Virus record (IMG/VR): IMGVR_UViG_2541047907_000002
Coordinates: 1-47,077 of that record
Length of the DNA stretch: 47,077 bases
Strand: one strand, 5' to 3'
Source of the DNA: a virus
Lineage: Duplodnaviria; Heunggongvirae; Uroviricota; Caudoviricetes
Within the stretch, counting starts at the first letter, position 1. The number at the start of each line of letters is the position of its first letter. Shown here one piece after another: positions 1 through 47,077 of this stretch. The position numbers and the translations under genes are program-made. The notes under the pieces were generated by a model. The model saw nothing but the letters and a program-made list of their open reading frames with translations, was not told the origin of the DNA and made no database searches.

Positions 1-1131
1 TCAAATGACCAGTTTTTTCCACTCCTTACCGCGTGCATCGTTGTAAATATCAGTCATTTTTTGATTCGAATGACCTAGCAAAATTTGGGTATCAATTCCC
101 TGCTCTCTGAACAATCGCTCCGATAAAGATCTCTGCTCATGGAAAGAGGGTGGGGTGCCATTAGCACGCCAGTTGTAATCCACAGAATCCCGCGCTTTTT
201 TAAATGCAACGGTTAACGTTGCTGGCTTAACCATCCCGCCGCGCTTAGCTGTCCCTTTCGCGTGATGATGGTGCAATAGCCACGGACTAAGAACGCAATC
301 GCGACAGGATGACACCACATCATCCAGGGTGAGATTTAATTTATCGCAACGCAGAACCAGAGGGATGGCAATCCGGGTTCCTGTTTTTTGCTGTTCGACA
401 TGAAGATAACCATCCCGGATATCCGAAAATTGCATTTTGCAAATATCTGAAAGGCGCTGGCCTGTCACCAGTGCCAGCAGCATGCCGCGCTGTAAAAAGT
501 AACCATCCTTTTCCGCTGCGTTATAAATCATCATCCACTCATCAAAAGTCAGTCGCTGTCTTGATATCCGCACCTGCGGTTTTTTTGCCGATTCTGCAGG
601 GTTAAAGCCTGGCGGGACATCGCCTGTTTGCTGAGCTTCCCGGAAAACATCGATCAGCACCTTCCTGAAAATTTGTCCCATTCTGTTATGTCCTCTGGCC
701 TTGTACTCTTCCAGCACCGATACCACATCTTTTACGGTTATGGCATCTAACGGTCTGGTGCCAAAACGTTCATCAAATACCCTGAGAGGGGCCGCTTTTT
801 GTTTCAGCGTGTTGAGTTTGATCTCTCCGTTTTCATATCTTTCCTGTTGAATTTTTCTGTAATTATTCAGAAAAATGGAAACAGTTGATGAACCGCCGGT
901 ATCATTAATAATTTTCTCCTGCAGACTGAGCATTTGTTCCATTTGCTGCCTGGCAAGACGGCTGTTCGCTTCTGCTGCAATAGTTTCTGCCAGTTTCTGG
1001 TCAATACTGCCGAGACCGTGATTTTTGCCTGTTATGGGATGCCTGTAACGCCAGTAAACTTTGTTATTTCTTTTGTCAAAATATGGAGATAATCCCGGAA
1101 CATCGGTTTTATATTTTCGCGGGCGCGCCAT
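1..1131 (-). CDS. int: Phage tyrosine integrase (site-specific recombinase)
   Basis: 376 aa ORF at the prophage edge; C-terminal LLGHSNQKMTDIYNDA segment fits the tyrosine recombinase catalytic region (H..Y); start overlaps the upstream small basic ORF, the usual xis-int arrangement. Confidence 0.85.
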   Translation of the reverse strand: MARPRKYKTDVPGLSPYFDKRNNKVYWRYRHPITGKNHGLGSIDQKLAETIAAEANSRLARQQMEQMLSLQEKIINDTGGSSTVSIFLNNYRKIQQERYENGEIKLNTLKQKAAPLRVFDERFGTRPLDAITVKDVVSVLEEYKARGHNRMGQIFRKVLIDVFREAQQTGDVPPGFNPAESAKKPQVRISRQRLTFDEWMMIYNAAEKDGYFLQRGMLLALVTGQRLSDICKMQFSDIRDGYLHVEQQKTGTRIAIPLVLRCDKLNLTLDDVVSSCRDCVLSPWLLHHHHAKGTAKRGGMVKPATLTVAFKKARDSVDYNWRANGTPPSFHEQRSLSERLFREQGIDTQILLGHSNQKMTDIYNDARGKEWKKLVI

Positions 1132-1357
1132 CTTCCAGTATCCTCTTCAAAGCAGGATGATCTGTGGCGATCACCTCCGGCTTGTTTACCATTCCGACAA
1201 AGCGAGCTCGCGGATCCACTCGCCAGTGTCTTCCAACTTTTTTGGGGAGAGGAAATATCATTCCGGCTTTAGCGTATTTACTTAACGTGCCCGGAGTAGG
1301 GACCGGATCGCTGAATTCCTCTTTTGCCCACTCAGTGAGCAGAATAAGTCTTGCCAT
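1109..1357 (-). CDS. xis: Excisionase-like small DNA-binding protein
   Basis: 82 aa basic protein immediately upstream of int with a 23 nt overlap; position and size typical of lambdoid Xis. Confidence 0.55.
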   Translation of the reverse strand: MARLILLTEWAKEEFSDPVPTPGTLSKYAKAGMIFPLPKKVGRHWRVDPRARFVGMVNKPEVIATDHPALKRILEDGAPAKI

Positions 1358-1421
1358 GAGCGTCGTTCGCTAATCATGGTCGCCGCCACTATAGCTGGTG
1401 GGCGACGACCGGGGTTGAACA

Positions 1422-4371: not shown

Positions 4372-4929
4372 TCAACAATGAATTTTTAGTAATTGCTCCA
4401 CAGTCATATTTTTAATTGCACTCCGGTTTACAAGAGTCCAGCCTTGTTTCTCCAGATAAAACTGGAAGGTATCCAGGGTGCAGACCATTGCGCCGTCAGG
4501 AACGGTTTCAGTGAATTTGATATTGCCGTGTTCGTCGAGACGGATAACCAGGGTGCGTCCGTCCCCGTGAATCATTTTGTCGGGAGACGGGGCGTTATTC
4601 TGGCGCAGTTCTTCCTCCATGCGATCGAACTCAGCAATGTAGGCTTCCTTGAATGCAGCTGCTTTTTTGCCGGTGAAGCCCATCACCAGGAAAACGAAGC
4701 CGTTTTTGGTGATTTGGTACATTGGGCGTTTTTTGCCTTGCTCATCAATATATTCGGCGGGCGCAAAATTGCGCTCGCTAAATTTCTGTGAGCATTCCAA
4801 GTTGTCGATTTTTTTCAGAACATCTTTATGCATTTTGCGGAAGAATTCCGCGATGGCGACAGACGTGGTGACGGCACGACCATTTTCTACGGTTACACAA
4901 GGGTGAGAAAGGGTAGGGATAGTAGCCAT
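4372..4929 (-). CDS. Rha-family phage regulatory protein
   Basis: Segment TTSVAIAEFFRKMHKDVLKKIDNL...SERNF...QGKKRPMYQITKNGFVFLVMGFTGKKAAAFKEAYIAEF matches the Phage_pRha pattern as recalled; start placed at internal ATG 4927-4929 preceded by AGAGG; the ORF is open up to 5226, so the true start is uncertain. Confidence 0.65.
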   Translation of the reverse strand: MATIPTLSHPCVTVENGRAVTTSVAIAEFFRKMHKDVLKKIDNLECSQKFSERNFAPAEYIDEQGKKRPMYQITKNGFVFLVMGFTGKKAAAFKEAYIAEFDRMEEELRQNNAPSPDKMIHGDGRTLVIRLDEHGNIKFTETVPDGAMVCTLDTFQFYLEKQGWTLVNRSAIKNMTVEQLLKIHC

Positions 4930-5412
4930 GATGGCAGCCTCTAGTGATAAGTTAGTTAACTCACCACCATGGCTTTCCACGACCATAAAGGTGGTGAGAC
5001 GTACAGGGGTGGAAATACCGGTCACTAGAGAACCCGGCCAGCCTTTCGGCTGCCCTGCACGCCCCACCATAATGCGAATGAGGCTGTGCTTAGCGCATAA
5101 AAAAACCGCTTTGGCGCGGTTATGCGCTCTAGTGAACATCGGGTTTCCACGCCCGGCACCCGTTTTATAAGGTGCAGGTGCACTATAATTCCACCCGTTC
5201 TGGTTTTCAATAGCTACATTCAACATTTTCTCTACCTTTCATCACCGAAGTGAACTTTGTTGATGCGGTGCCTGGTGCCTCCAGGTGACGTTAACCAGTT
5301 AACAATTAACGCCGGAATACAGAAGGATTCCCGTTACGCCAGTAAAAGGCCCCATCACTGTTTTAACTGTTCCGCGTGCGCATAGCCGCATTCACCGCAT
5401 CACAAAATTCAC

Positions 5413-7183: not shown

Positions 7184-7603
7184 TTAAGAGGCTTTTTGTT
7201 TTTTCTTTCGTGCTAACTCTTCGTAAATTGCATTGTACTTCTGTTTTTTCTCCTCAAGAGTTTTTAAAAGTTCATCTGTCTCACTGTCAGGGAGCTCGTC
7301 CAGAAGATCAATGATGATTTTTTGTCTTGGATTTAACTCCTGATAGAAACGTACCTGTCCACTTTCTTCTGTATCCTCTCCCAAAAGATAGGTTGGTGTT
7401 GTTCCAATGAGTGTTGCTAATTCCCTTAATTTCTCTCGGCGAGGAATTGTTTCGCCATTAAACCATTTGCTAACCGCTTTTGGTGTTAATTTCATTCGAC
7501 GGGCAATTTCTGCCTGCCTTCCATGTTGTTCATAACCAGCGTTTTCACAGGCTAGCGCAAGCCTACTGGCGAACTCTTTACGCGCTTTATCTTCATGAAC
7601 CAT
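7184..7603 (-). CDS. Phage repressor, XRE-family helix-turn-helix (cI/DicA-like)
   Basis: 139 aa; N-terminal HTH segment QAEIARRMKLTPKAVSKWFNGETIP; divergently arranged with a Cro-like gene. Confidence 0.8.
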   Translation of the reverse strand: MVHEDKARKEFASRLALACENAGYEQHGRQAEIARRMKLTPKAVSKWFNGETIPRREKLRELATLIGTTPTYLLGEDTEESGQVRFYQELNPRQKIIIDLLDELPDSETDELLKTLEEKKQKYNAIYEELARKKKQKAS

Positions 7604-7682: not shown

Positions 7683-7937
7683 ATGAACCAGAAAACACTT
7701 GAAGATGTAATCAAAACTGTTCGCGTTTCTGTTGTGGCCGACGTTTGTGGTGTCAGCCAAAGAGCAATCTACAAATGGATGGATAACGGAAAATTGCCTC
7801 GCACTGAATATACCGGCGAAACAAATTACGCTGAAAAAATCGCTCATGCATCAAACGGATTATTTTCTGCCGATGCAATTTTAACTATTGGCAGAAATAA
7901 AACTACTACGAAAAAGCTGTTGGGAGTTGATTCATGA
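7683..7937 (+). CDS. Cro-like (YdaS-like) DNA-binding protein
   Basis: Start ATG 7683 preceded by GAGGGTG; HTH-like CGVSQRAIYKWMDNGKLP; divergent from the repressor. Confidence 0.6.
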   Translation: MNQKTLEDVIKTVRVSVVADVCGVSQRAIYKWMDNGKLPRTEYTGETNYAEKIAHASNGLFSADAILTIGRNKTTTKKLLGVDS

Positions 7938-8359
7938 AAATCAAGCATGAACACATCCGCATGGCGATGAATGCCTGGGCACATCCGGATGGCGAAAAAG
8001 TTCCGGCAGCTGAAATAACCCGGGCTTATTTTGAGTTGGGGCTGACGTTTCCTGAACTGTACGACGACAGCCATCCGGAAGCCCTGGCTCGCAATACCCA
8101 GAAAATTTTCCGCTGGGTGAAGAAAGACACCCCTGATGCTGTTGAAAAAATTCAGGCGTTGTTACCGGCGATCGAAAGGGCAATGCCACCTCCGCTCGTG
8201 GCCTGGATGCGCAGCCACAGTTCGGAATATCACCGGGAGCTTGTCGAGCGACGGGATCGGCTGATGAAAGATATAGATGAGCTCGTTGCATCAGCGATCG
8301 TTCTGTTCGATCAGATGAATCGTGGTGGTCCGGTGGGAAATATTGTGGTTGTGCATTGA
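7934..8359 (+). CDS. YdaT-like prophage protein (toxin-like family)
   Basis: 141 aa beginning MKIKHEHIRMAMNAWAHPDGEKVPAAEITRAYFELG, which matches the Rac-prophage YdaT family as recalled; start overlaps the cro-like stop by 4 nt. Confidence 0.55.
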   Translation: MKIKHEHIRMAMNAWAHPDGEKVPAAEITRAYFELGLTFPELYDDSHPEALARNTQKIFRWVKKDTPDAVEKIQALLPAIERAMPPPLVAWMRSHSSEYHRELVERRDRLMKDIDELVASAIVLFDQMNRGGPVGNIVVVH

Positions 8360-8430
8360 CTGACAATATTCATACCGGATCGCTTCCGGAAACTCGTGAG
8401 TAAAAAGATTCGGTATCAGAAGAGGTGAGT

Positions 8431-9468
8431 ATGGCTAACGCCTGGCTCAGATTATGGCATGACATGCCAAATGATCCTAAGTGGCGAACAATTTCCAGGG
8501 TGTCAGGACAGCCAATCGCAACAGTGATGGCTGTGTATATCCACCTTCTGGTGAGCGCGTCACGAAATGTCACTACATGTCACGGCGTGTCACTACGTGG
8601 TCACATTGATGTCACGACGGAAGATTTAGCAAGTGCGCTTGATGTGACGGAAGAAGTAATTGATTCAATTTTACAGGCAATGCAGGGGCGGGTACTTGAT
8701 GGAGATTTAATCACTGGATGGGAAAAACGCCAGGTACTGAAAGAGGACAACGGTAACGTTTCTCAAACCGCGAAATCCCCGGCAGAGCGCAAGAGAGCGC
8801 AGCGCGAGAGGGAAAAATTACGAAAACAGAATGAGGCGTGCCACGACGAGTCACGCATATGTCACGACATGTCACGACGAGTCACGACAGATAAAGATAC
8901 AGATAAAGAATTAAACCCCACACATAACGCGCGCGAGAGTGCTCCGACCAGTGAGTCGAATGGTATGCCGTTGCAGGCAGCGGAACCTGATTACCTGGAA
9001 GGCCTGAGCGAACCCATCGGAAAATTTCCGATGACCGATGGCTGGCATCCGGCGCTGGATTTTCGACGACGGGCTGCACTGTGGGGAGTGGCTCTGTCAG
9101 AGCCGGAATTTACACCTGCTGAACTTGCCGCCTTCCGGGACTACTGGGCAGCGGAGGGGAAAGTGTTCACGCAGATTCAGTGGGAGCAGAAATTCGCCCG
9201 TCACGTAAATCACGTCAGGGCGCAGGTTAAACCAGCCAGCAAGGGGGAGAACTATGCAGGAATACCATCAGCAGGCACCGCATCGCGGGCAGTTCAGCAA
9301 ATCCGGGCTGCCCGTGAGCAGTGGGAACGCGAAAACGGGGTTGTCAGCGTCGGAGACGGCCTGGAAGCTGTGGGAACTCATGGGGGAGGTTTATTCGAAC
9401 CGCTGGACCCAGAAGAACGGGGCCGCACCTTCGAAGCTCTGGATTGCACAGATTGGCGCGATGACTGA
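8431..9468 (+). CDS. Replication initiation protein (O-like; YdaU/DUF1376-like N-terminus, DnaT-like C-terminus)
   Basis: N-terminus [19 protein letters not shown]; C-terminal region resembles the DnaT ssDNA-binding domain; translationally coupled to the next gene. Confidence 0.6.
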
Positions 9469-9922
9469 GCTGCAAATCCGGCAGGTCTGCCGCCAGTGCA
9501 TGGACCGCTGCCGGGCGGGTGAAACATGGCCTCCGGACCTGGCTGAGTTTGTGGCGTTGATTTCAGAAAGTGGGGCTAACCCATTTGGTCTGACGGTGGA
9601 TGCTGTGATGGAGGAGTACCGCCGCTGGCGCAATGAGTCCTGGCGATACGACGGAAGCGATAAATATCCGTGGACTCAGCCTGTGCTGTATCACATTTGT
9701 CTTGAGATGCGTTCAAAGGGGATTGAGCGCCAGATGACCGAAAGGGAGTTAAAACGACTTGCAGAACGGCAACTAGCGAAATGGGCAAAGCATGTTGGTA
9801 TGGGGCTGAGTGTTCCGCCAGTCCGGCGACAACTGGCTGCACCCAAACGCCCGTCGGGGCCAACGCCAATTGAGTTGCTGAAACAGGAGCATGAACGCCG
9901 GAAAGCGGCTGGGTTTGTTTGA
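9461..9922 (+). CDS. Lambda P-like replication protein (C-terminal domain family)
   Basis: ATGA start/stop overlap with the upstream gene; segments resemble the lambda P C-terminal region (YPW...TD/E.ELRR pattern) as recalled. Confidence 0.5.
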
Positions 9923-13148: not shown

Positions 13149-13153
13149 GCAGA

Positions 13154-13411: not shown

Positions 13412-13492
13412 GGTAAACCTCACGGAGTAGGATAGAACACTATTCGATGATAGCACGCTGCCTGTTGACGACAACAGAAATCAGAGACAATA

Positions 13493-20868: not shown

Positions 20869-20869
20869 A

Positions 20870-20946: not shown

Positions 20947-20948
20947 GT

Positions 20949-27645: not shown

Positions 27646-27648
27646 GTG

Positions 27649-31032: not shown

Positions 31033-31071
31033 GCGGTATCCGTGATTCAGATAAATCAGGAGACTGAAAAA

Positions 31072-31407: not shown

Positions 31408-31476
31408 TGGTGAAGTGATTAACTGAACAAACGGGGCGCGATGCGTCCCGTTTGTGTTTCTGAAGGATAATATATA

Positions 31477-32505: not shown

Positions 32506-32555
32506 GGTCAGGCGGGATATTCCCGCCTTTTTCTTTAGCGCACGGGAGAGATGTG

Positions 32556-35198: not shown

Positions 35199-35231
35199 TC
35201 TCCTTTCAGTTCTTTTTCCGGAATAAACAAC

Positions 35232-36477: not shown

Positions 36478-39400
36478 CAAAATCAGAAGCATACTTCCGG
36501 TCAGCGCCAGCCTGGCAGAGCGGGTAGTGGACAGTACTGCCGGTGATATGCTGGCGGAAATTGCGGTCTGTCTGATCCGCTATGTAAAAAATCCCGACTT
36601 ATGTCCGGCGGAATTGCTGCCATGGCTGGCCTGGGAAATGGCAGTGGATACCTGGAGTGAGCACTGGACTGAGGCGGAAAAACGGGCGGCGATTAAACGT
36701 GCTGCTTACATCCACCGTCACAGGGGGACAAAAGCGGCGCTGATGGCGTCGCTGGCTGACAGTCCCTTCCGGTCGCAGATTGTTCAGTGGTATGAGCTGA
36801 ACCCACCCGGAGAACCGTATACCTTTCGTCTGAACGTGGAGCAGAAGGATTTACCGGTGCTGATGAATGATCATCAGGATCTGAAGCATGCGGTGCTCCG
36901 AGCCAAAAATCTGCGCAGCTGGTTCAGTGTTCATATTTACGGACGCCATAGCGGTGAGGTGTATGGCGCGGGATATATTTCGTCCACCGAAATACTAAAG
37001 AATCGCCTTAATGCCCGCAGTATCCTTCCGGCAGAAAGCGACGTGATGCTTCTTCCCGGGGAGCAAAAAGTGATCCCGGTAACCATTTTGCCGGCAGGGG
37101 CAGATGACAAAAGCTTTACGGCCACAGTAACCAGTGACACAGTGGTCACAGCCACGGTACGGGATGGCGCACTGCATCTTCACGGGCTGCGCCGGGGACA
37201 GAGTAGCGTGGTGCTGACCACTGTGAATGGCGTGGCGGCAACGGTGACCGTTCGCGTGGTGGCGGAGGCTCGGTTCATGGTTCGTGTCGATGACGCGAGT
37301 AAGCCGCTGTTTTTTGCTCATGCAGACGGATTCACCATTGATTATGGCGATGGTGTCGATTCCTGCGACTATACCCTTCAGGATGAGGGAGTATATACCA
37401 CCCGAGAGATTGTTGCAGGCACTGTGATGAGCCTGACTGTGAAGGGATGTGACAGTCTGTGTTTTTACCGTTCCGGCAGAGCAAGAAGTGCCCCTTTACA
37501 GGAACTGATCAGGATAAGCAGTGATCGCAGCAGTATGTATCAATTTGCCTGGGGGCAGGCAGACCTGAATAAAATTCATCCCGGCGCACTGGGTGATTTG
37601 CCGAATGTCACAACATATGCCTATGCCTTCAGCAATTGTTCGTCCCTGTCTGCGCTGCCAGATGCCCTGTTTTCCGGTTCACCGGCGGTGACTTCATTTG
37701 CGCATGTGTTTTATGGTTGCACTTCACTGGCAACACTACCGGGCGATCTGTTCAGTGACAATCCGCAGGTCACCACGTTTGTCAGTGCCTTTCAGGGCTG
37801 TACCGCGCTCGGGGAAATTCCGGCAGGGCTGTTTGACAGCGCAGGCCTGGTTACCACGTTCGCCTCCCTGTTTTACGGTTGCACGGGCCTGACCCGTCTG
37901 CCGGGAGGCCTGTTCCGGGCGGCGGTCTCTGCCACGGATTTTGCCAGCCTGTGTTACAGCTGCACGGCGCTGACGGCGTTACCTGCCGGACTGTTCACGG
38001 GAGCGGTGAGTGCGAAAAGTTTCAGTATGGCCTTTGCATACTGTCGCCAGCTGGCAACGCTGCCGGATGACCTGTTCAGCGGGCTCGGGCAGGTGACGGG
38101 ATTTTATCAGACCTTTCAGTACTGTCAGGCACTGACCACGCTGCCGTCACGACTGTTTTATGACTGCGTGTCGGTGATCTCGTTTGGTGGTACTTTTCGT
38201 AACTGTACCAAACTTACCACCCTGCCGGAGGATGTGTTTGTCATCCGTGACGGCACATCACAGATAACTCTGGCTGAGGTGTTCAGTTACTGCACGGCGC
38301 TGACTGCGGTACCGACGGGACTGTTTGAGCCGGTGAAGGCGCGAATCAGCAATGCCGGTTACGCCTTCATGTATGCGGGCCTCACCCGTGTACCGGCCCG
38401 TCTGTTCGCGGGTGCGGTGAACTGCACCACGTTCAGTCAGGTTTTTGCCAACTGTTCAGCCCTGGAGGAAACCGGCGATGAGGTATTTGTCGGGTGTGAT
38501 GCTGCTGTGAGTGCGGCGCAGGCGTTTTACAGATGCAGAACGCTGAGCACGGTCGGGGCTGGGCTGTTTACGGACTGTGGACGTATAACAAATTTTCTGG
38601 GGGCATTCAGTCTCTGTTATGCGCTGTCGTCCATACCGGAAAATCTGTTTGAGGGATGCAGCGCGGCCACGAATTTTTATGAGACGTTTTACAGTTGTCA
38701 GGCGCTGGTCGCCCTGCCGGATTCCCTGTTTGCTGCCTGTGAAGGTACCGATAACATCAGCCTGTATGGCACATTTGCATACTGCGCAGCACTGGTGTCG
38801 ATTCCTGACGGATTATTCAGTGCCATCAGGAGCCGTATCAGCACGGCTCAGGTGGCATTTCGAGGCTGTTCATCACTTACCACAGTCCCTTCCGGTCTGT
38901 TCGCGGATGCCACAAACTGCGGGAATATCGACTCTGCTTTTCTGGACTGTACGGCACTGAGCACTGTGGGCGATGAGGTGTTCAGCGGATGTACTGCCCT
39001 GACGTCTGCCCATAACGTTTTTTCGGGGTGCCTGACCCTGACAACCACGGGTGACCGTCTTCTGGCCGGCTGTACGGCACTGAAATATGTGAGCGGGGTG
39101 TTTGAGGGATGCAGTGCCCTGACCTCCACGGGAGGGGCGCTTCTGTCCGGTTGTACGTCACTGACATCCGCGACGGGCCTGTTCAGCGCGTGCAGGCGTC
39201 TGGTCACGGTCCCGGAAGACACGTTCCGGGACTGCGGGGCGCTGATAAGCGCCGGGGAAACCTTTGCCGGGTGCACATCCCTGACCGGAATACCGGATGC
39301 GTTGTTTGCGGACTGTCCTTCACTGAAATCGGCGGAAAAGATGTTTTATGGCTGCAGCGCACTGGTCAGCGTGCCACCGGATATTGTGAAGCCAGGCGAC

Positions 39401-39619
39401 ACAGCCGGGTCAGTGAACTGGATGTTCCGTGAATGTTCATCGCTGGCGGTGGATATCAACACTCTCTTCACGCAGACCTTTCCTGAAGGTTACTCGCTGG
39501 CGTATCTCTTCGACGGGTGCAGTAACGTGACGGGCAGCAAAAGTGAATTTCTGGCGAAGTTTCCGTCACCGGTGACTTCAGCATATTGTTTTGATGACTG
39601 TCCGTTACTGACGGACTGA
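36470..39619 (+). CDS. Tail protein I (P2 gpI-like N-domain) fused to an Ig-like domain and a long array of ~23-residue leucine-rich-repeat-like units
   Basis: 1049 aa; N-terminal ~180 aa resemble phage tail protein I; a Big_2-like segment follows; the remaining ~680 aa are roughly 25-30 repeats of pattern F-x2-C-x2-L-x2-(L/I)P-x2-LF. Confidence 0.7.
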   Translation: MNDKIRSILPVSASLAERVVDSTAGDMLAEIAVCLIRYVKNPDLCPAELLPWLAWEMAVDTWSEHWTEAEKRAAIKRAAYIHRHRGTKAALMASLADSPFRSQIVQWYELNPPGEPYTFRLNVEQKDLPVLMNDHQDLKHAVLRAKNLRSWFSVHIYGRHSGEVYGAGYISSTEILKNRLNARSILPAESDVMLLPGEQKVIPVTILPAGADDKSFTATVTSDTVVTATVRDGALHLHGLRRGQSSVVLTTVNGVAATVTVRVVAEARFMVRVDDASKPLFFAHADGFTIDYGDGVDSCDYTLQDEGVYTTREIVAGTVMSLTVKGCDSLCFYRSGRARSAPLQELIRISSDRSSMYQFAWGQADLNKIHPGALGDLPNVTTYAYAFSNCSSLSALPDALFSGSPAVTSFAHVFYGCTSLATLPGDLFSDNPQVTTFVSAFQGCTALGEIPAGLFDSAGLVTTFASLFYGCTGLTRLPGGLFRAAVSATDFASLCYSCTALTALPAGLFTGAVSAKSFSMAFAYCRQLATLPDDLFSGLGQVTGFYQTFQYCQALTTLPSRLFYDCVSVISFGGTFRNCTKLTTLPEDVFVIRDGTSQITLAEVFSYCTALTAVPTGLFEPVKARISNAGYAFMYAGLTRVPARLFAGAVNCTTFSQVFANCSALEETGDEVFVGCDAAVSAAQAFYRCRTLSTVGAGLFTDCGRITNFLGAFSLCYALSSIPENLFEGCSAATNFYETFYSCQALVALPDSLFAACEGTDNISLYGTFAYCAALVSIPDGLFSAIRSRISTAQVAFRGCSSLTTVPSGLFADATNCGNIDSAFLDCTALSTVGDEVFSGCTALTSAHNVFSGCLTLTTTGDRLLAGCTALKYVSGVFEGCSALTSTGGALLSGCTSLTSATGLFSACRRLVTVPEDTFRDCGALISAGETFAGCTSLTGIPDALFADCPSLKSAEKMFYGCSALVSVPPDIVKPGDTAGSVNWMFRECSSLAVDINTLFTQTFPEGYSLAYLFDGCSNVTGSKSEFLAKFPSPVTSAYCFDDCPLLTD

Positions 39620-39635
39620 ATGACAGGAGAAAACG

Positions 39636-40583
39636 ATGCCAGCAGGATTAACCCTGACCGTAGCCGGTGCGGCAGAAATAGAGGCGGCTTATCAGGCCGG
39701 TGATGTGGTCACCATTGAGGCGGTGGCTGTCGGTGACGGGGGAAACCGGCTCCTGCCATCCACACCGGATGAACTGGCTGCCATGACGTCACTGGCAGGG
39801 GAGTTCGGTCGCGAACCTTTCGCCTCCGGTACCACAGATGACGGTTTTATCAGCGGGCAGGTGGTGATTGACTGCAAAACCTATCCGGGGAAAACGCTCC
39901 GTGAGCTGGGTCTGGTCAGCCAGTCGGGCACCCTGATTGCTTATGGCCTTTATCCGGACACGTACCTTCCTGACCAGACCGACTCGGTCATCAAGGAGGT
40001 CATTGTGACGTCGGTACTGGAACTGACGCACGCAGAGAGTGTGACGCTGTTACTTGACCCGGAAAGGATGCTGCTGACGCAGGATGCCGGCGACAGGCGT
40101 TATCTGCGCATCAGTGAAGACCTGGCGGAAATTGCAGAAAAAGGTGCAGAAGCACAGGCCCGGGGGCGGATGCATCTTGATGTTTACAGTACCACGGAAG
40201 CAGATAATCAGTTCCAGCCGACGGGCAATTACGCCATGGCGGATGAGGTGTACACGAAAACGGAATCCGACAACCGTTTCCAGCCCAAAGGGGAATATTA
40301 CTCAAAGACCGAGTCCGATAACCGTTTTCAGGCAAAAGGTGAGTACTACACAAAAACTGAATCTGATGCGCGTTATATACAGAACTGGGAGTACACCGCA
40401 GAGGTGGTTTACAAACCTGCAAATAACGAAACGAGCTGGACATTCCGGGCTCCTGCCGGATGTACGATTTCAGGGATTATTGTGGAGGAAACAGGCAGCA
40501 ATTCTGCCGATAACATCAGCGGTGTTTACTACAAGGCTGCGCAGATTTATATCAATGGTGCATGGCGCTCTGTATCGGGTTAA
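39636..40583 (+). CDS. Tail fiber protein, P2 gpH-like N-terminus with fiber repeats
   Basis: N-terminal tail-collar fiber-like region; three copies of YTKTESDNRFQ.KGEYY-type repeats. Confidence 0.65.
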   Translation: MPAGLTLTVAGAAEIEAAYQAGDVVTIEAVAVGDGGNRLLPSTPDELAAMTSLAGEFGREPFASGTTDDGFISGQVVIDCKTYPGKTLRELGLVSQSGTLIAYGLYPDTYLPDQTDSVIKEVIVTSVLELTHAESVTLLLDPERMLLTQDAGDRRYLRISEDLAEIAEKGAEAQARGRMHLDVYSTTEADNQFQPTGNYAMADEVYTKTESDNRFQPKGEYYSKTESDNRFQAKGEYYTKTESDARYIQNWEYTAEVVYKPANNETSWTFRAPAGCTISGIIVEETGSNSADNISGVYYKAAQIYINGAWRSVSG

Positions 40584-40598
40584 TAAAAGGAGCCAGTA

Positions 40599-41126
40599 AT
40601 GGAACTCAGAAACGTTACGCGTTATTACCCTGAAGGCATGCCTTATGGGGAAGGGATTCAGTATTTTCGCAGTGAGGACGGGCAGGATTTTTACAATTCA
40701 CTGGGTAAATTCACGAAGAAATACAAATTGTGCATTCATCCTGAAACCGGTGTGATTTATTCCATGGCGGAAGATGTATCCCGGCTTTACCCGGTGGGCT
40801 TCACCATTGTGGAAGTGGATGAACTACCGGAAGGATTTTGTATTGAAGCCCGCTGGTATTATAAAGATGGTGAAGTACTGGCGGTCCCTGTTGACTACCG
40901 GCAGCAGGCAGAGGCGGAGCGTGCTTGTCTTACCGCGATTGCCGAACGGGAAATATCCGATAAGAAGACGGATTTACTTCTGGAGATCATCAGTGATGAA
41001 GAAAAAGAAAAGCTGAAAGCCTGGCGTGTTTATGCAAAGGAATTACAGGCGATGGATTTCAGCACTATTGCGGATAAGACAGCTTACGACAATATTGTCT
41101 GGCCTGAATCACCACAAAATATCTGA
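40599..41126 (+). CDS. Tail fiber assembly protein (gpG/Tfa-like)
   Basis: 175 aa directly after the fiber gene; position and size. Confidence 0.6.
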   Translation: MELRNVTRYYPEGMPYGEGIQYFRSEDGQDFYNSLGKFTKKYKLCIHPETGVIYSMAEDVSRLYPVGFTIVEVDELPEGFCIEARWYYKDGEVLAVPVDYRQQAEAERACLTAIAEREISDKKTDLLLEIISDEEKEKLKAWRVYAKELQAMDFSTIADKTAYDNIVWPESPQNI

Positions 41127-41143
41127 AAAAAAGTGAATCAACA

Positions 41144-41168
41144 GACCGCCTTTAAGGGCGGTTTTTTT
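41144..41168 (+). terminator. Intrinsic terminator after the fiber genes
   Basis: Stem GACCGCC/GGCGGT(C) with loop TTTAAG followed by T7. Confidence 0.5.
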
Positions 41169-41181
41169 ATGGGAGAAATGT

Positions 41182-42654
41182 ATGTCCGGACTACATGGTG
41201 TTGAAACCATTGAACTGACGACAGGAACGGTTGCCGTGCAGACCATCTCCACGGCAGTGATTGGTCTGGTGGGGACAGCACCGGATGCTTCCGGTGGTGT
41301 GTGTGCTTCCGGTACTACCGGATCGTGGCTGCTGGGAACGGCGCTGGATTTTACGGCGAAACAGGAAGGGCGGGCCGGCAATAAGATTTCGGTGGTTGCC
41401 GTCGCGGCCACAGAACAAAGTGCGCAGACTACGGCCACGCTGGAAGGTACGACCCTGACGATAACACTGGGGACGGATGAACACAGCCAGGTTAACGCGA
41501 CTGTGGACCGTGTGACTGAAGTGGTGAATGCGCTGGGTGATTCACCTGTGACGGCGGCGGTCAGTACCCTGAATGCAGGAGGCGCTGAAAATCATGTGGT
41601 GCCGCCGTTCAGCCTGACGTTATCCGGCGGGGAAGATGAGGCGTTCCCGGTTAATACACCGGTGGTGGCAGGGGCCATTACTCAGGCGGGAAAACTGGGG
41701 GCCGCCGGGACACTGTATCCGGCTCTGCGAGATATTTTTGACCAGACCGGTGCTCTGGTGATTGTGGTGCGTGCGGAAAGTAAACCGAAAGCGAAAGAGG
41801 CTGAACAACGTGCGGCGGTGATTAAGGCCATGGAAGCACTGACGGAAAGCAAGGGAAAAACAGGCTACCAGCCGCGCATCCTCATTGCCACGGGTTACAG
41901 TGAGGATGATGGCGTGGCAAAGGCGCTGGAAACGTATGCCGCGAAGCTGCGGGCCGTCGCCTATGTTGACTCGCCATCAATGGCAACGCCGCAGGATGTG
42001 GTTCAGCGTCGCGCATCCTTTGGCGGTCGCGTGGAGCTGCTGCGTCCGCGAGTGTCAGTAACGGATGACAGCGGGCAGACGGTATTTCGTCCGTATTCGG
42101 CACGCGCTGCCGGGCTGCGTGCCCGTATTGATTACGAAAAAGGATGGTGGTGGTCCAAATCAAACCAGGACGTGATGAATATCACCGGACTGGAGCAGGT
42201 GGACACATTTATTCTCGGGGAGCAGAACTGCACGGCCAACCTGCTGAACATGGAAAACATCTCCACCATTATCCGGCATGACGGTTTTAAACACTGGGGT
42301 AACCGCCTGTGTTCATCCCACAGCCAGCTGCGTTTTGAGTCTGTGCGCCGTACGGCTGATGTGATTGAGGACAGCATTCAGGAGGCCATGCTGCCTTATG
42401 TCGATCGTCCGCTTGATCGGGATGTGGCGGACGACATTCTTGGCAGTATTAATGCGTATATGCGTCAGCTTAAAAATCTGGGAGCGATCCACGGTGGCAG
42501 CGCCTGGCTGAATGATGAACTGAACACGGCAGAAAACCTGGCAGCCGGGTGGTTGTATATCGACTATGACTTCGGACCAAAGTCGCCACTGGAGCGTCTG
42601 ACGCTGCGGACAATGATCAACAATAAACTGGCACAGGAGGAACTGACAGTATGA
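41182..42654 (+). CDS. Contractile tail sheath protein, P2 gpFI-like
   Basis: 490 aa; GLRARIDYEKGWW, IRHDGFKHWGNRLCS and WLYIDYDFGPKSPLERLTLR parallel P2 FI as recalled. Confidence 0.85.
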   Translation: MSGLHGVETIELTTGTVAVQTISTAVIGLVGTAPDASGGVCASGTTGSWLLGTALDFTAKQEGRAGNKISVVAVAATEQSAQTTATLEGTTLTITLGTDEHSQVNATVDRVTEVVNALGDSPVTAAVSTLNAGGAENHVVPPFSLTLSGGEDEAFPVNTPVVAGAITQAGKLGAAGTLYPALRDIFDQTGALVIVVRAESKPKAKEAEQRAAVIKAMEALTESKGKTGYQPRILIATGYSEDDGVAKALETYAAKLRAVAYVDSPSMATPQDVVQRRASFGGRVELLRPRVSVTDDSGQTVFRPYSARAAGLRARIDYEKGWWWSKSNQDVMNITGLEQVDTFILGEQNCTANLLNMENISTIIRHDGFKHWGNRLCSSHSQLRFESVRRTADVIEDSIQEAMLPYVDRPLDRDVADDILGSINAYMRQLKNLGAIHGGSAWLNDELNTAENLAAGWLYIDYDFGPKSPLERLTLRTMINNKLAQEELTV

Positions 42655-43169
42655 ACACAGGTGAAAAAAAACTGTTGCGTGGCTGGACGTTGTTTCTGCC
42701 TGGTGGGATCCGTCTTCAGGGGGCGCATGAATACACGCCGCCTGCCATTAATATCTCAACAGTGGATATCAAAACCGGTGCAATGGATGCACCGGTGGCA
42801 GTGGATGACGGCATGGAAGCGCTGACCTGCTCATTTAAGATTTATGGTTACGATGTCTCCATGCTGACGCTGCTGGGATTACAGGCCGGGCTTTATTCAC
42901 CGGAGATCGTTGTCCGCCAGGCTTACCGGGTGGGGAATGCGACCAGCGGGCAGGTGGAAACCCTGCAGGGGATGATCACCAGTATCACGCCGGATGCGCG
43001 TCCGTCGACATCACAGGCAGATGCCTCGGTGACGGTGGAAATGTCGCTGAGTTATTACCGTCAGGTTGTCGACGGTGTGGAAACCATCTGCATTATTCCG
43101 GAGGAATTTGTGCGCCGTATTAACGGCGTGAATGTTCTGTCGGATCTGAAAAAAATTATCCGGGTTTAA
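42651..43169 (+). CDS. Tail tube protein, P2 gpFII-like
   Basis: 172 aa; ATGA overlap with sheath gene; C-terminal YYRQVVDGVE...INGVN parallels P2 FII. Confidence 0.75.
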   Translation: MNTGEKKLLRGWTLFLPGGIRLQGAHEYTPPAINISTVDIKTGAMDAPVAVDDGMEALTCSFKIYGYDVSMLTLLGLQAGLYSPEIVVRQAYRVGNATSGQVETLQGMITSITPDARPSTSQADASVTVEMSLSYYRQVVDGVETICIIPEEFVRRINGVNVLSDLKKIIRV

Positions 43170-43189
43170 TTTCCGTATCCTGTCATTCA

Positions 43190-43218
43190 GGCGGCACATG
43201 CCGCCTTTTCTTTTTTTA
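43190..43218 (+). terminator. Hairpin plus T-run between the tube and gpE genes (attenuator-like)
   Basis: Stem GGCGGC/GCCGCC with loop ACAT followed by a T-rich run (TTTTCTTTTTTT). Confidence 0.45.
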
Positions 43219-43229
43219 AGGAGACGTTT

Positions 43230-43532
43230 ATGTCAGAAAAAAACAGTGTGCCTGCCAGCAGTGTGGAAATTGTGTTATCCGTGCCGTATGTCACCACATC
43301 AGGGCAGATGATCACGTGTGTCACCATGCGTGCGCCCACCGTCCGTGACAGGCTGCTGCATCGACGGAGCACCAAACCGGAAGCCGAGGCCGATCTGGAC
43401 ATGATAGCCGGACTGTGCGGGATGAACGCGGCGGACATGATGAACATGGAAGCGTGTGATTACCTGGCCCTGGAGCGGCAGTTTAATGTTTTTTTGCTGC
43501 CGCCGGTCCGGCGGAAGAAGACAGCATCCTGA
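43230..43532 (+). CDS. Tail assembly chaperone gpE (zero-frame product)
   Basis: 100 aa ORF before the tape measure gene; contains the slippery run T TTT TTG near its 3' end. Confidence 0.6.
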   Translation: MSEKNSVPASSVEIVLSVPYVTTSGQMITCVTMRAPTVRDRLLHRRSTKPEAEADLDMIAGLCGMNAADMMNMEACDYLALERQFNVFLLPPVRRKKTAS

Positions 43533-43669
43533 CAGCGATACGGCGCGCCGGTGCCTGGTTTGGCTGGTCTCCCTGTGAGGTGATGGCGCTGCCATATGCG
43601 GATTTTGTGGCAATGATGCTGGCGGAGTCGGAAGAGAGGAAACGACGTTATGGCAACGGTTGGCGATAA
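43230..43669 (+). CDS. Tail assembly chaperone gpE' (predicted -1 programmed frameshift product)
   Basis: Heptamer T_TTT_TTG at 43490-43496 in the gpE frame; the -1 frame is open for 58 codons from 43496 to a TAA at 43667-43669, overlapping the tape measure start, as in P2 E/E'. Confidence 0.5.
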
Positions 43670-45302
43670 CCTTAAAGCGAATATCAGGATCGGCGGCACG
43701 ATAGATCCGTCCTGGCGAAATTCAGTCGAAGGACTGAAAAAAGGGCTTTCCGGAGCAACACGGGAAGTGGCACGTCTGACGCGCCAGCAGGATGTACTGA
43801 AACGAAAAATTCAGGCCGGTGTACTGGCCGGGCAGGATATTACCGATCTGCGAAAGCAGTATGAAAAGCTGGGCAAAAAAATACATGATGCCACCGGGGA
43901 GCAGGACAAATTTAACCGTAAGCTGGCACGCGCTGATCGTCTGGCCCGCTGGAAAGGGCGTATCGGTAGTGTACTGAAAACCGGAGCCGGGCTTTCAGTG
44001 GGGACCGGACTGACACTGGCCGCCGGTACCACCGCCGTGCTGAACCGGAATACGGAGACGGCAGAGCGGGCAGGAATAGCCCGGAGTTACGGGGTGGATT
44101 ATGAAACCTACGCGGCGTGGGATTCACTGGCCCGGCTGATGGGACTGAACGGCGAAAACATTGGTGATCTGTTTGAGGAATACCGGAATAAGGTGTTCGA
44201 CGATAACAATGGTGCCACGGATAAAGGGGCCATTCAGGAGGTGTTTGGTGCGCTGGGGCTGAAAGCGGGTGTGATGGCCGGAAAAAGCAACCAGGAGCAG
44301 GTGGAATTTTTATTTGATCGTTTACTGCAGGTGGAAAATGAACAGGTGGCTGCCGGGATGGCAGATGCATTGTTTGGTGGTGAGGCCAATAAAATTCTGA
44401 CCTGGATGCGTCTGTCAGGAAAAACTTACCGGGAACTTATCAGTGAGCAGAAACGCTATAACCTGGTGACAAAGGAAGGAGCAGACGGCGCAGTCAAGGG
44501 GCATATGGCGCTGTCAAATCTCCGTAGTGTTCTGAGTTCGTCCATTGATGAAATCAGCGGACAACTGGGTAATGAACTGGCACCACATATTCAACAGGTG
44601 ACGGATGACCTTGCGGCCTGGTTTAAGGATGGTGGACTGGAAAAAATCCGGGCATTTATCCGTGATGATGCCCTGCCGGCGCTGATCGACATGGCTGCGT
44701 GGATGTGGAAATTCGGAAAAGTTCTGGCTGGAATAACGCAGAAAGCGATTGAGTGGGGGCTGACAGATGATCCGCGTCAGGACCGGCGAGAAGTACTGGA
44801 ATATCTGGCAAAAATGGCGTCGCCGGAGATGGCGAGAGCGGTGGCGCAGAAAAACGGTCAGGGTGAATGGTTTGAAGAACTGCTCAGGCAAAATCCGGAC
44901 CTGACGAAACAGGTTGTACAGGCCTATAAAGATACCCGCGGTTACCTTCCCTGGAATCATGATGATAAAAAGTTTGATGCATTTCTCGACCCTTTGCTGG
45001 GACCGAAGGATGAACCTGATTTTAATGCGATAAAAGAAAAATCCCGCGCTTACATTGACGGACTTCCTGCGGCAGGTCAGGGGAGGGAAAACACGGATCG
45101 CCTTTCGGCACTTCAGTATACCCCCGGCAGTATCAGCCAGGTGGAGGTTAAACCCACATATCAGATACGGGCAGAATTTAACATCACCCAGAAACCCGGC
45201 GAGGATGCCGGACAACTGGCAGACAGGGTGACGAAAAATCTGGGGGATATTCATTTTGGTCAGCGTTCCCGTATGACCGATGGTGATGCATTCTGGGGGT
45301 GA
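43650..45302 (+). CDS. Tail tape measure protein (gpT-like)
   Basis: 550 aa, helical/Ala-Gly rich, located between the chaperone and gpU genes. Confidence 0.75.
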   Translation: MATVGDNLKANIRIGGTIDPSWRNSVEGLKKGLSGATREVARLTRQQDVLKRKIQAGVLAGQDITDLRKQYEKLGKKIHDATGEQDKFNRKLARADRLARWKGRIGSVLKTGAGLSVGTGLTLAAGTTAVLNRNTETAERAGIARSYGVDYETYAAWDSLARLMGLNGENIGDLFEEYRNKVFDDNNGATDKGAIQEVFGALGLKAGVMAGKSNQEQVEFLFDRLLQVENEQVAAGMADALFGGEANKILTWMRLSGKTYRELISEQKRYNLVTKEGADGAVKGHMALSNLRSVLSSSIDEISGQLGNELAPHIQQVTDDLAAWFKDGGLEKIRAFIRDDALPALIDMAAWMWKFGKVLAGITQKAIEWGLTDDPRQDRREVLEYLAKMASPEMARAVAQKNGQGEWFEELLRQNPDLTKQVVQAYKDTRGYLPWNHDDKKFDAFLDPLLGPKDEPDFNAIKEKSRAYIDGLPAAGQGRENTDRLSALQYTPGSISQVEVKPTYQIRAEFNITQKPGEDAGQLADRVTKNLGDIHFGQRSRMTDGDAFWG

Positions 45303-45304
45303 AC

Positions 45305-45793
45305 ATGGTGGATTTACTGGGCTGGGGGGTAAACCGGCTTGAGCGCGAAGCATGGGACGCAGTGGGCTCATTAACGGAGGTGGCTTCCCGCGTCATGCTG
45401 TCGTTTGGTGAGTTTGAATTCAGTATCGATACGGCAGCGTATAACGCCATGAAGCGCACCATGGAATGGCGGTGGGATGAACAGCAGCTTATCGGAAAAA
45501 ACGACCTGCTGCAGTATACCGGCAAAGGAGCCAGAGCAATAACCCTTGAAGGGATGGTTCATGCGGGATTTCGTGACGGCGTGGGAATGGATGCCCTTGA
45601 TACACTGGTTCAGATGGTGGATGACAATCCGGCACCGTACCTTCTGGTCTCGAGCACAGGCGATGTGATGGGGTATTTCGTGGCTACCGCTTATTCAGAT
45701 AACACCACGTCCTTTCTTCCCGGCGGTGCGCCGAAGAATAAAACGTTCACACTGGAGCTGAAATATTATGGCGAAAAACTGGCGGACCACTGA
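45305..45793 (+). CDS. Tail protein U, P2 gpU-like
   Basis: Position and C-terminal similarity to P2 U; start ATG 45305 (or GTG 45299) overlapping the tape measure stop. Confidence 0.7.
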   Translation: MVDLLGWGVNRLEREAWDAVGSLTEVASRVMLSFGEFEFSIDTAAYNAMKRTMEWRWDEQQLIGKNDLLQYTGKGARAITLEGMVHAGFRDGVGMDALDTLVQMVDDNPAPYLLVSSTGDVMGYFVATAYSDNTTSFLPGGAPKNKTFTLELKYYGEKLADH

Positions 45794-45986
45794 CGGCGAT
45801 ATGCTGGATGACATCTGCCAGAGACACTATGGCAGCGCCGGACTTAACCAGTCACTGGCGGCGGTACTGGAAGCCAATCCCGGACTGGCTGATCTTGGTC
45901 CGGTATATCCGGCAGGTGTGGAAATCGTGTTACCGGACTGGATATATGAACCGGAGGAAAAGGAGACGTTTCAGTTATGGGACTGA
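45768..45986 (+). CDS. Tail protein X, P2 gpX-like
   Basis: DMLDDICQRHYG...LEANPGLADLGPVYPAGVEIVLPD parallels P2 X (DTLDAICVRYYG...LAANPGLAELG). Confidence 0.65.
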   Translation: MAKNWRTTDGDMLDDICQRHYGSAGLNQSLAAVLEANPGLADLGPVYPAGVEIVLPDWIYEPEEKETFQLWD

Positions 45987-47077
45987 ATGAATATCTGCCG
46001 GATTTCAGTCTGACAGCAGAAGGTAAGGATATCACGAAGGCCATAAAACGCGGCCTGGCGGAACTGCGTTACACCGATAACGGTGCGGCCACAAAGCGGT
46101 CCGATGAACTGATGATAACGCTGTTCAGTGAGACGATGGCGCTGCCACCAAAAGGCGCGGTATTAACGCTGGGACTGGGATTCAACGGAAATCTGGTGAA
46201 TAAGGGCAGTTTTACGGTCTGCCAGGTGGCAAGTGGCGGTCCGCCGCGCCGGATAACCATTTATGCCACGGCAGCGCCGATGAATGCGTCCAGACATGGC
46301 GCAGATGTGACCGCACTGAAAACCCGTGCCTTCAGCGATGTCACGCTGGGGGACCTGGTGAAAACCATCGCCACTGAAAATAATCTGGTGGCACGGGTAT
46401 CGCCGGCACTGGCGGAAATCCGTATTCCGTGGGTGATGCAGTCATCTGAATCGGATGCGTCCCTGCTTTCCCGGCTTGCAGGTATGTACGGTGCCACCAG
46501 TAAACCGACGAACGGTTACTGGTTATTTCTGGAGTATGGCACATCGCAGAGTACCGGAGGCAGGGATGCCCCTGTAATGACCATCACACCGGACATGGTG
46601 TCAGACTGGGATTACCGGGAGGGTGATCGGCAGGGGGCATCCGGAGGCGGAAAAGGAACAACAAAAAAAGGAAAAGTGGGTGTCAGATATTACTCCCCTG
46701 TCGACGGGCGAACGCGTGAATTTAAAGTGGATGTGGAGTCCACAGACAAGCGGCATCCATTCACCCAGCCGGATCAGGACACAGCAAAACACTGTGCAGA
46801 TTCCAAGGTTAAACGTGTGCAGAAAGCCGGACGCCAGATGACGATAACGTTGCCGTGCAGGCCCGCACTGCTGAAAGCGGGGGCGGAAATGCGTTTTATC
46901 ACGCAGGGCTTTGGGGTACGCGAGGATCATAACTGGCAGGCAGAGTCGGTGGAATTTTCACTGGCACCGGGGCAGGGATTTACGCTGAATCTTTCTCTGG
47001 CCACGGATATCTCCGCGAAAGGGCAAGCATCAGGGAAGAAGAAAGCGGATAAAAAAGGCGTGAATTATCACGGATAA
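45977..47077 (+). CDS. Tail protein D, P2 gpD-like (late control D)
   Basis: 366 aa; N-terminal FSLTAEGKDITKAI and central SGGPPRRITIYATAAP parallel P2 D; stop at the last three bases of the window. Confidence 0.8.
   Translation: MGLNEYLPDFSLTAEGKDITKAIKRGLAELRYTDNGAATKRSDELMITLFSETMALPPKGAVLTLGLGFNGNLVNKGSFTVCQVASGGPPRRITIYATAAPMNASRHGADVTALKTRAFSDVTLGDLVKTIATENNLVARVSPALAEIRIPWVMQSSESDASLLSRLAGMYGATSKPTNGYWLFLEYGTSQSTGGRDAPVMTITPDMVSDWDYREGDRQGASGGGKGTTKKGKVGVRYYSPVDGRTREFKVDVESTDKRHPFTQPDQDTAKHCADSKVKRVQKAGRQMTITLPCRPALLKAGAEMRFITQGFGVREDHNWQAESVEFSLAPGQGFTLNLSLATDISAKGQASGKKKADKKGVNYHG

Follow-up and report, generated by a model that had tools for sequence, protein, structure and literature searches.

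An apparently intact lambdoid prophage carries lambda-like head genes beside a P2- and R-pyocin-like contractile tail module

The caudoviral record IMGVR_UViG_2541047907_000002 (47,077 nucleotides, the whole of which is called the window here) places a lambda-type set of packaging and head genes directly ahead of a set of P2-type contractile tail genes, with two unassigned genes at the seam. This arrangement raises the question of whether both halves serve one virion, and what the two genes between them contribute. The initial annotation had described the window as lambdoid regulation and a lambda-type cos site and head joined to a P2-type contractile tail, a description borne out by Pfam and PHROGs assignments, by BLAST, and by reverse tblastn with the lambda and P2 proteins. 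The window extends from the stop codon of int at its left end to the stop codon of a gpD-like gene at its right end. It is apparently an intact prophage of the Escherichia coli type, with control, packaging, and head genes like those of lambda and a contractile tail like those of P2 and the R-type pyocins. Very probably, it represents one complete temperate lambdoid myovirus prophage, from int to tail gene D, whose lambda-type head and P2-type tail serve a single virion.

Head and DNA packaging genes

All nine packaging and head genes (25248-33325) exceed the Pfam gathering scores. They stand in the lambda order Nu1-A-W-B-C-D-E-FI-FII, as the initial annotation had proposed, and show 34-64% identity to lambda.

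25248-25757, plus strand, terminase small subunit Nu1 (Pfam Phage_Nu1; 42% identity to lambda)
25729-27645, plus strand, terminase large subunit gpA (Pfam GpA_ATPase and GpA_nuclease; 64% to lambda)
27646-27858, plus strand, gpW head-tail adaptor (Pfam gpW; 48% to lambda)
27855-29426, plus strand, lambda-family portal gpB (Pfam Phage_portal_2; 63% to lambda)
29416-31032, plus strand, gpC S49 protease/scaffold (Pfam Peptidase_S49; 53% to lambda)
31072-31407, plus strand, gpD decoration protein (Pfam HDPD; 56% to lambda)
31477-32505, plus strand, gpE major capsid protein (Pfam Phage_cap_E; 59% to lambda)
32556-32921, plus strand, FI packaging chaperone (Pfam Packaging_FI; 40% to lambda over 40 amino acids only)
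32921-33325, plus strand, FII-like head-closure protein (Pfam Phage_attach; phrog_82 Hc1, E 9e-29; 34% to lambda)

In reverse tblastn, the lambda head proteins match the window only at 25.4-33.3 kilobases (kb). The window also resembles lambda in its predicted cos layout, in Int and Xis, in Q-type late control, in a replication protein like P, and in general gene order. In contrast, the lambda tail proteins Z, U, V, and G have no tblastn match in the window at E <= 1e-3, and a contractile tail with sheath and tube is present instead.

The gpC protein comprises 538 amino acids versus 439 in lambda. A 138-nucleotide tandem repeat in the C-terminal, scaffold part of its gene (30399-30907; 3.7 copies, 79% matches), with a unit of ∼46 amino acids ('ALPEAKGREQLAQ.LA.QPGMTV.QAKTLLAAAP'), accounts for the longer protein.

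The predicted cos site

We aligned positions 24990-25190 of the window with the joined ends of lambda, and this alignment, together with that of relatives, outlines the following candidate site.

25033-25177, plus strand, predicted lambda-type cos

The heptamer GGGTCCT at 25033-25039 aligns with an identical heptamer near the right end of lambda, which we take to be cosQ. A cosN 12-mer, GGGGTAGGCATA, is predicted at 25060-25071, exactly where lambda has GGGCGGCGACCT, and the 23-nucleotide block at 25084-25106 is identical to lambda bases 23-45; heptamer and block are spaced much as in lambda. Further to the right, an inverted repeat (ACTTCCGGTTTTT/AAAAAACGGAAGT, 25112-25124 and 25165-25177) provides a candidate pair of Nu1 sites. 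A search for the 12-nucleotide cohesive end of lambda itself gave no match in the window beyond chance. Nu1 also differs from its lambda counterpart in the N-terminal part. The cos of the window is predicted to be of the lambda type in layout, with an end sequence of its own.

The linear record of Hafnia phage yong2, a relative described below, ends in ...GAGGGGGCAGCGACA and starts with CGCGGGAAACGG..., and the junction of the two is the position aligned with the right-hand cosN nick of lambda, which fits a cos at that place in the window. This suggests that the cos ends of the yong2-like phage group lie at the lambda-equivalent site. Among close relatives of the window (loci L010-L037), Nu1 varies between 39 and 99% identity, and the adjoining gpA is at least 93% identical; this suggests that Nu1/cosB specificity cassettes are exchanged independently of the remaining head module.

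The contractile tail

When the late half of the window was compared with a phage collection by megablast, only lambda-like heads were matched and the tail remained unmatched, so protein-level searches were needed. Pfam, NCBIfam, or PHROGs models identify V, W/gp25, J, I, H, G, sheath, tube, E, T, U, X, and D at 34575-47077.

34575-35198, plus strand, V spike (PDB: P2 gpV 3qr8, E 4.8e-12; also chain 4s37)
35232-35588, plus strand, W/gp25 (family models)
35563-36477, plus strand, J (PDB: Tri1a PA0618, E 5.6e-55)
36470-39619, plus strand, I fused to immunoglobulin (Ig) and leucine-rich repeat (LRR) domains (family models)
39636-40583, plus strand, H tail-collar fibre (family models)
40599-41126, plus strand, G fibre chaperone (family models)
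41182-42654, plus strand, sheath FI (Pfam; PDB PA0622, E 8.5e-51)
42651-43169, plus strand, tube FII (Pfam)
43230-43532, plus strand, chaperone E (Pfam Phage_TAC_7; not matched to P2 E by BLAST)
43230-43669, plus strand, predicted E+E' product of a -1 shift at a slippery heptamer, ending at 43669
43650-45302, plus strand, tape measure T, 550 amino acids (phrog_3654 and tape-measure PHROGs only; not matched by BLAST)
45299-45793, plus strand, U (PDB: ripcord PA0626)
45768-45986, plus strand, X (family models)
45977-47077, plus strand, hub D (PDB: R2 pyocin hub)

Where BLAST detects them, the tail proteins share 22-48% identity with P2 (26-40% for the baseplate and fibre set), and in reverse tblastn the P2 tail proteins match the window only at 34.6-47.1 kb. 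None of the P2 capsid and packaging proteins Q, P, O, N, M, and L, nor R, S, ogr, int, C, cox, A, B, or the lysis genes, has a tblastn match in the window. The tail set had been predicted to follow P2 order. This holds for V-W-J-I-H-G, for FI-FII-E/E'-T-U, and for D, whereas X, which in P2 belongs to the head/lysis operon, lies between U and D as in R-pyocins. Differences from P2 are also seen in the 550-amino acid tape measure (815 in P2) and in gpI, which is extended to 1049 amino acids.

The E/E' assignment of the initial annotation agrees with the sequence. The slippery heptamer T TTT TTG at 43490-43496, in the frame of E, is the same TTTTTTG heptamer as the annotated slip site of P2, and the -1 frame has no stop before 43669, so that it runs into the beginning of T. 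A programmed -1 frameshift is predicted to yield E+E', which would comprise 146 amino acids (142 in P2).

The gpI homolog consists of an N-terminal P2 gpI domain, a Big_2 Ig-like domain, and ∼800 amino acids of BspA-type LRR/PARCEL-like repeats. This extension probably serves as an additional receptor-binding module of the baseplate. The overall identity of gpI drops to 41-48% in some relatives that are nearly identical elsewhere, suggesting that the region beyond the gpI domain is exchanged among them.

The head-tail junction

Between the FII-like gene and V lie the two genes that had been left unassigned, and the coordinates given for them and for FII in the initial annotation are correct.

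33306-34028, plus strand, HK97-gp10-like neck or tail-completion protein, 240 amino acids, first gene of the tail module
34025-34591, plus strand, putative tail terminator or collar protein, 188 amino acids, family of R-pyocin PA0615

The FII-like gene overlaps the first of them by 20 nucleotides, and the next two junctions overlap by 4 and 17 nucleotides. Neither protein has a Pfam or NCBIfam match. For the 240-amino acid protein, however, PHROG 27 ("tail completion or Neck1 protein") gives a match that spans almost the entire sequence (E 3.3e-25). Its AlphaFold model, built with 21 homologs, has a mean predicted local distance difference test (pLDDT) score of 77; compared with BFVD, the model retrieves viral proteins, one of which is named HK97 gp10 family, and Foldseek returned no significant match to the PDB. 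Profile and fold both bear out the HK97 gp10-like (PHROG 27) assignment, with the protein being about twice the size of the best-matching 109-residue HK97-gp10-type chain and carrying arginine-rich insertions. We assign it as an HK97-gp10-like neck or tail-completion protein. Minor_tail_Z, indicated for this family by one marginal Pfam match among 21 relatives (E 0.021), was not relied on.

Among the PHROGs, the 188-amino acid protein matches only the uncharacterised PHROG 1072. An exhaustive profile search gathered 346 relatives, and the profile built from 123 of them finds one sequence in the PDB, "Collar PA0615" (6u5f_A, 6u5j), over the full length (E 1.4e-33). In BLASTP, the protein itself aligns with PA0615 over the C-terminal 67 residues (31% identity, E 2e-5), and a few members of the family match Pfam Phage_Mu_Gp37 or Phage_tail_terminator. 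The collar of the R2 pyocin caps the end of sheath and tube that points away from the baseplate, which is the position of a tail terminator. From its sequence profile, the 188-amino acid protein is predicted to be a tail terminator or collar of the PA0615 type.

The PA0615-type collar and the HK97-gp10-like protein take the place of R and S of P2. Neither gpR nor gpS has a BLAST or tblastn match in the window, and hhalign of shallow profiles of both junction proteins with P2 R and S and with lambda Z and U was null. A phmmer search of each single junction protein against the PDB gave nothing useful.

Relation to R-type pyocins

Six genes of the window match solved chains of the R2 pyocin of Pseudomonas aeruginosa, with the PA number rising along the window: the collar PA0615, the chain 4s37 (database name "Phage baseplate protein", which we take to be the PA0616 spike), Tri1a PA0618, the sheath PA0622, the ripcord PA0626, and the hub. 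The two systems also share the position of X next to D, and the full order from the 188-amino acid gene to D is presumably that of PA0615-PA0628. In layout, the tail module, including the 188-amino acid gene and the position of X, thus appears nearer to the pyocin cassette than to P2. PA0615-PA0628 has been described as the structural cassette of the pyocin (PMC11871291). In contrast to the window, R-type pyocins possess no head, packaging genes, or FII, and they are bacteriocins, not viruses.

This likeness must be weighed against the possibility that the window consists of two adjacent elements, a lambdoid prophage without tail genes and an independent R-type tailocin or P2 remnant, that share no virion. 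The match of the cassette from the 188-amino acid gene to D with PA0615-PA0628 agrees with such a reading, as tailocins need no head. However, the co-oriented genes overlap across the junction, and no regulator, lysis cassette, or integrase separates head from tail genes. Nor does the window contain lambda tail genes as an alternative partner for the head, whereas an FII ring and a neck protein are present, the latter being needless in a headless tailocin. Moreover, the block of head plus tail is conserved in many genomes and in isolated phages, including the imaged phage Valp1 (see below). We consider two separate elements barely credible. The pyocin locus is not known to contain a counterpart of the 240-amino acid neck protein or of FII, and their presence upstream of a pyocin-like cassette is consistent with a function in connecting tail and head. 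Since the tail is immediately preceded by a full complement of head and packaging genes and by a neck protein, the window is a phage, not a tailocin.

Phages of the same design

Prophages ∼91% identical to the window across most of the late region are found in dozens of complete E. coli genomes. In 82 complete E. coli genome records, the best match to 30000-47077 has 90-95% identity, and the best 25 of these 82 each cover 76-87% of that interval. In E. coli A19, the one strain inspected whole, the prophage lies between the tRNA-Ser gene adjoining mtfA and yodB; the PGAP annotation gives the same gene series, with both junction genes "hypothetical". The exact 240-amino acid protein occurs in 45 blocks of public assemblies, and the gene order was the same in all four places shown.

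Outside the enterobacteria, the late region is collinear with that of the Vibrio myovirus Valp1 from the small terminase to D. The order in Valp1 is terminases, gpW, lambda-family portal, S49 protease, a small gene, E-type capsid, a small gene, Hc1/FII, Neck1, the PA0615-like gene, and V to D; unlike in the window, V and W are separated there by a PAAR gene and a further small gene. Counterparts in the same order are found for 18 of the 24 late proteins of the window (24-51% identity), and for a 19th (J1) at 28%. Identity amounts to 41% for A, 49% for B, 35% for C, 34% for E, 28% for the 240-amino acid protein, 33% for the 188-amino acid protein, and 28-51% for V to D. The A, B, C, and E proteins of lambda also match Valp1 (33-51%).

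Images of Valp1 show a myovirus whose head measures 60 nm and whose contractile tail measures 90 nm, and the same study places it with VHML and VP58.5 (PMC11054321). A passage of PMC10612066, citing Oakey et al. 2002, points out that VHML combines a P2-like tail module with a remainder resembling lambda/N15. VHML-type phages have genes for a protelomerase and ParAB and are believed to be maintained as linear plasmids, whereas the window has an integrase and excisionase of the lambda type and a Q-containing early region of lambdoid type. Neither protelomerase nor ParAB was identified in the window, where every ORF (open reading frame) above 400 amino acids has another assignment (RecE-like exonuclease, A, B, C, I, sheath, or T) and the smaller early ORFs were not all scanned. 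The window is an integrating lambdoid prophage of the E. coli group that carries a virion module of the VHML/Valp1 type.

Two further isolates, Hafnia phage yong2 (MZ516527) and Citrobacter phage Chris1 (ON041214), are lambdoid temperate phages that share with the window Nu1/A/W/portal packaging genes, an FII-like gene, homologs of the 240- and 188-amino acid proteins, and the same tail family (29-62% identity). They differ in a fusion of ClpP protease and major capsid protein that replaces C, D, and E, in A and B proteins only ∼24% identical to those of the window, and in a permuted tail order.

These relatives bear on a second alternative, in which the window is a recent, one-off recombinant of a lambda-like and a P2-like phage, and the junction proteins are newly recruited adaptors. 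Matches to lambda and P2 are indeed cleanly partitioned along the genome, and swaps do occur at the FII boundary (see below). On the other hand, tail identity to P2 is only 22-48% and head identity to lambda only 34-64%, and the late region, including both supposed adaptor genes, is collinear in a Vibrio phage and in several enterobacterial genera. The low identities, together with the collinear Vibrio phage, show an arrangement that is ancient and widespread, which effectively excludes a recent recombinant; both junction proteins also accompany a different capsid type. We therefore hold a recent origin to be very unlikely. The arrangement is an old, established virion type in distant Gammaproteobacteria, not a new hybrid.

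The initial annotation had set the mosaic against membership of the head or tail modules in a single known phage lineage. Such membership is largely what we find, given a late region that is collinear from terminase to D with Valp1 and is also matched by yong2 and Chris1, and the mosaic itself stands. A phrase search of the literature for a lambda-like head combined with a P2-like or contractile tail returned no match. Phage WO also combines a lambda-like head with P2-like tail genes.

Exchange of head and tail cassettes

We scanned IMG/VR with the 188-amino acid family and obtained 44 loci, which were classified by tblastn. About 30 of the 44 are like the window, with a C-D-E head and tail proteins at 90% identity or more. 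Collinear loci also occur in Erwinia, Hafnia, Citrobacter, Serratia, and others. Among species representatives, the lambda-type head is found in Erwinia endophytica and the ClpP-fusion head in Trabulsiella, Scandinavium, Rosenbergiella, Tatumella, and Serratia.

Locus L028 is informative for the limits of the modules. It retains the 240-amino acid protein (90%), the 188-amino acid protein (93%), and most genes from V to T (89-98%), with gpI, H, and G being more diverged from the window (41%, 65%, and 36%, respectively). Its head differs, consisting of a ClpP-protease/capsid fusion that is 84% identical to that of Chris1, and its FII-like protein is 43% identical to that of the window. When the DNA of the window and of L028 is compared, the homology breaks off at 25081, inside cos, and does not return until 33240, in the 3' end of FII; the tail is ∼89% identical. 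These breakpoints show that the unit from cos to FII was replaced as a block and that the boundary between FII and the next gene is a true point of exchange, in line with the junction after FII that the initial annotation had placed there. An assignment of FII to the tail module, suggested by its similar divergence from the FII proteins of lambda and Chris1, is ruled out by L028, where FII moves with the head.

A second boundary is in use in L047, L049, and L051. Their heads are of the lambda type at 64-86% identity, but for FI, FII, and all genes further downstream the identity is only 36-58%; in L047, DNA similarity to the window is lost at 32680, inside FI. Both head types are found with both tail gene orders among the relatives. 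The order V, W-J-I-H-G, sheath to D is that of the window, Valp1, and L038-L045; the order V, sheath to D, W-J-I-H-G is that of Chris1 (L002), yong2 (L003), and others (permuted set noted: L043, L047-L052). We conclude that this prophage family of the Enterobacterales can exchange its head (cos to FII) and its tail (neck protein to D) as cassettes.

The 240- and 188-amino acid proteins are normal head-proximal parts of the tail lineage. Both move together with the tail, and both are also used with a capsid type other than that of lambda. The initial annotation's view of them as special lambda-to-P2 adaptors is not upheld. Tentatively, and with some doubt on our part, the 240-amino acid protein and the PA0615-like collar could form a generic docking platform for FII-type rings of unrelated capsid lineages. 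Such a platform, if real, would explain the free swapping of whole head cassettes, be they lambda C/D/E or ClpP-capsid-fusion heads.

Proposed late expression and assembly

From ∼7.6 kb on, essentially all plausible genes (cro to D) lie on the plus strand, many of them with overlapping ends, and the GC skew climbs steadily from the same point. One-strand genes and a steady rise in skew are as expected for one long rightward transcription unit. In the late region, intergenic gaps do not exceed about 120 nucleotides. P2-style tail operons are unlikely, since tblastn finds no Ogr-type activator in the window. Starting downstream of Q, a Q-modified RNA polymerase would transcribe the lysis, head, and tail genes as a single long late unit. 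On the plus strand, strong terminator-like hairpins with T runs are located at 32510-32528 (after the capsid gene E), 41143-41164 (after G, the position of the P2 V-operon terminator), and 43189-43206 (after the tube gene), and the Q-modified polymerase would read through them.

For assembly, the Nu1/A terminase would cut cos and fill a gpE/gpD capsid through the gpB portal, which would then be closed by gpW and by the FII-like ring, a putative hexamer. The tail would be assembled separately on a V-W-J-I-D-U-X baseplate, with its length set by the 550-amino acid tape measure. Scaling from Valp1, whose tape-measure gene of 1791 nucleotides (∼596 amino acids) corresponds to a tail of 90 nm, gives an estimated tail length of ∼80-85 nm. 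The PA0615-like terminator and the HK97-gp10-like neck protein would cap the tail, in either order, and the capped end would dock on the FII ring.

Several points weigh against this reading of the window as the genome of one functional virion. Virion function is deduced from intact ORFs and from relatives. The single Q-dependent late transcript that we infer would have to pass the terminator-like hairpins after E, G, and the tube gene, and the cosN 12-mer, which differs from that of lambda, is predicted by alignment only. The assignment of the 188-amino acid protein comes from sequence profiles only: its AlphaFold2 model (8 sequences) is unusable with a pLDDT of 44, the alignment of its deep profile with lambda gpU by hhalign is weak (E 0.0015, probability 17%), and that with P2 gpR is null.

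Early region, lysis genes, and cargo

The remainder of the window is organised as in lambdoid phages.

1-1131, minus strand, lambda-type integrase at the left prophage end (Pfam Arm-DNA-bind_1, Phage_integrase)
1109-1357, minus strand, excisionase-like gene (Pfam Exc)
7184-7603, minus strand, helix-turn-helix (HTH) repressor (Pfam; models in this region are HTH_3, HTH_17, YdaT_toxin, DnaT, and Phage_lambda_P)
about 7683-7937, plus strand, divergent from the repressor, cro-like HTH gene (Pfam)
7934-8359, plus strand, YdaT-family gene in the cII position (Pfam YdaT_toxin)
8425-9468, plus strand, DnaT-domain O-like initiator (Pfam DnaT)
9254-9922, plus strand, lambda P-like replication protein (Pfam Phage_lambda_P)
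14889-15248, plus strand, RusA resolvase (Pfam RusA)
15239-15934, plus strand, late antiterminator Q (Pfam Phage_antiter_Q, E 1.6e-92)
22208-23469, plus strand, lysis genes, two holins and a GH108 endolysin (Pfam Phage_holin_8, Phage_holin_3_7, and Glyco_hydro_108 with PG_binding_3)

By Pfam, the early region also encodes a RecE-like exonuclease and, further to the right, a DUF968 protein. The leftward early operon contains a fusion regulator of Ash and Rha (4372-5226), and a pair of ParE toxin and ParD antitoxin (12849-13474) lies on the minus strand, opposed to the surrounding early and late genes.

A segment just 3' of Q is duplicated at 83-85% identity and is present in a third, partial copy (16018-16417, 18771-18833, and 19665-19988). 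The copies flank a DNA methylase (16495-17547) and an AraC-family regulator (20052-20765), and a membrane ORF of 239 amino acids without family (18912-19631) is also located between them. The repeat-bracketed stretch has a low GC fraction of 0.42 and looks like cargo inserted at the late-promoter region. Between this stretch and the lysis genes are four tRNA genes (20793-21102; Met-CAT, Arg-TCT, Thr-TGT, and Gly-TCC), of which the relative in strain A19 has only Thr and Gly at the corresponding position. A P22 antirepressor-like gene with P22_AR_N and ORF11CD3 domains (23729-24295) lies between the endolysin gene and cos.

The duplication and the cargo downstream of Q, and the fact that many lambdoid prophages of E. 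coli are defective, leave room for a third alternative, in which the window is a defective prophage, either cryptic or a maker of tail-only or transducing particles, that gives no infectious phage. However, the examined head, neck, tail, lysis, Q, replication, and int/xis ORFs are of full length compared with their homologs, and near-identical copies occur in many independent assemblies. A defective element is improbable on these grounds, and we retain the reading of a complete temperate myovirus prophage.

Implications

The analysis supplies names for two genes that annotations of a very common E. coli prophage group uniformly leave as "hypothetical", and it fixes exact limits for the exchangeable head cassette, from cos to FII, and for the tail cassette, from the neck protein to D. 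The current view of phage mosaicism is unchanged by these findings. A lambda head on a P2 tail is, however, an old and recurrent virion design and not a curiosity, which helps the annotation of prophages. The findings are also relevant to coupling DNA-filled heads to R-pyocin-type tails: if the docking platform proposed above is true, it would constitute a natural plug-and-play interface between head and tail that would be useful for putting heads onto R-pyocin-like tails.

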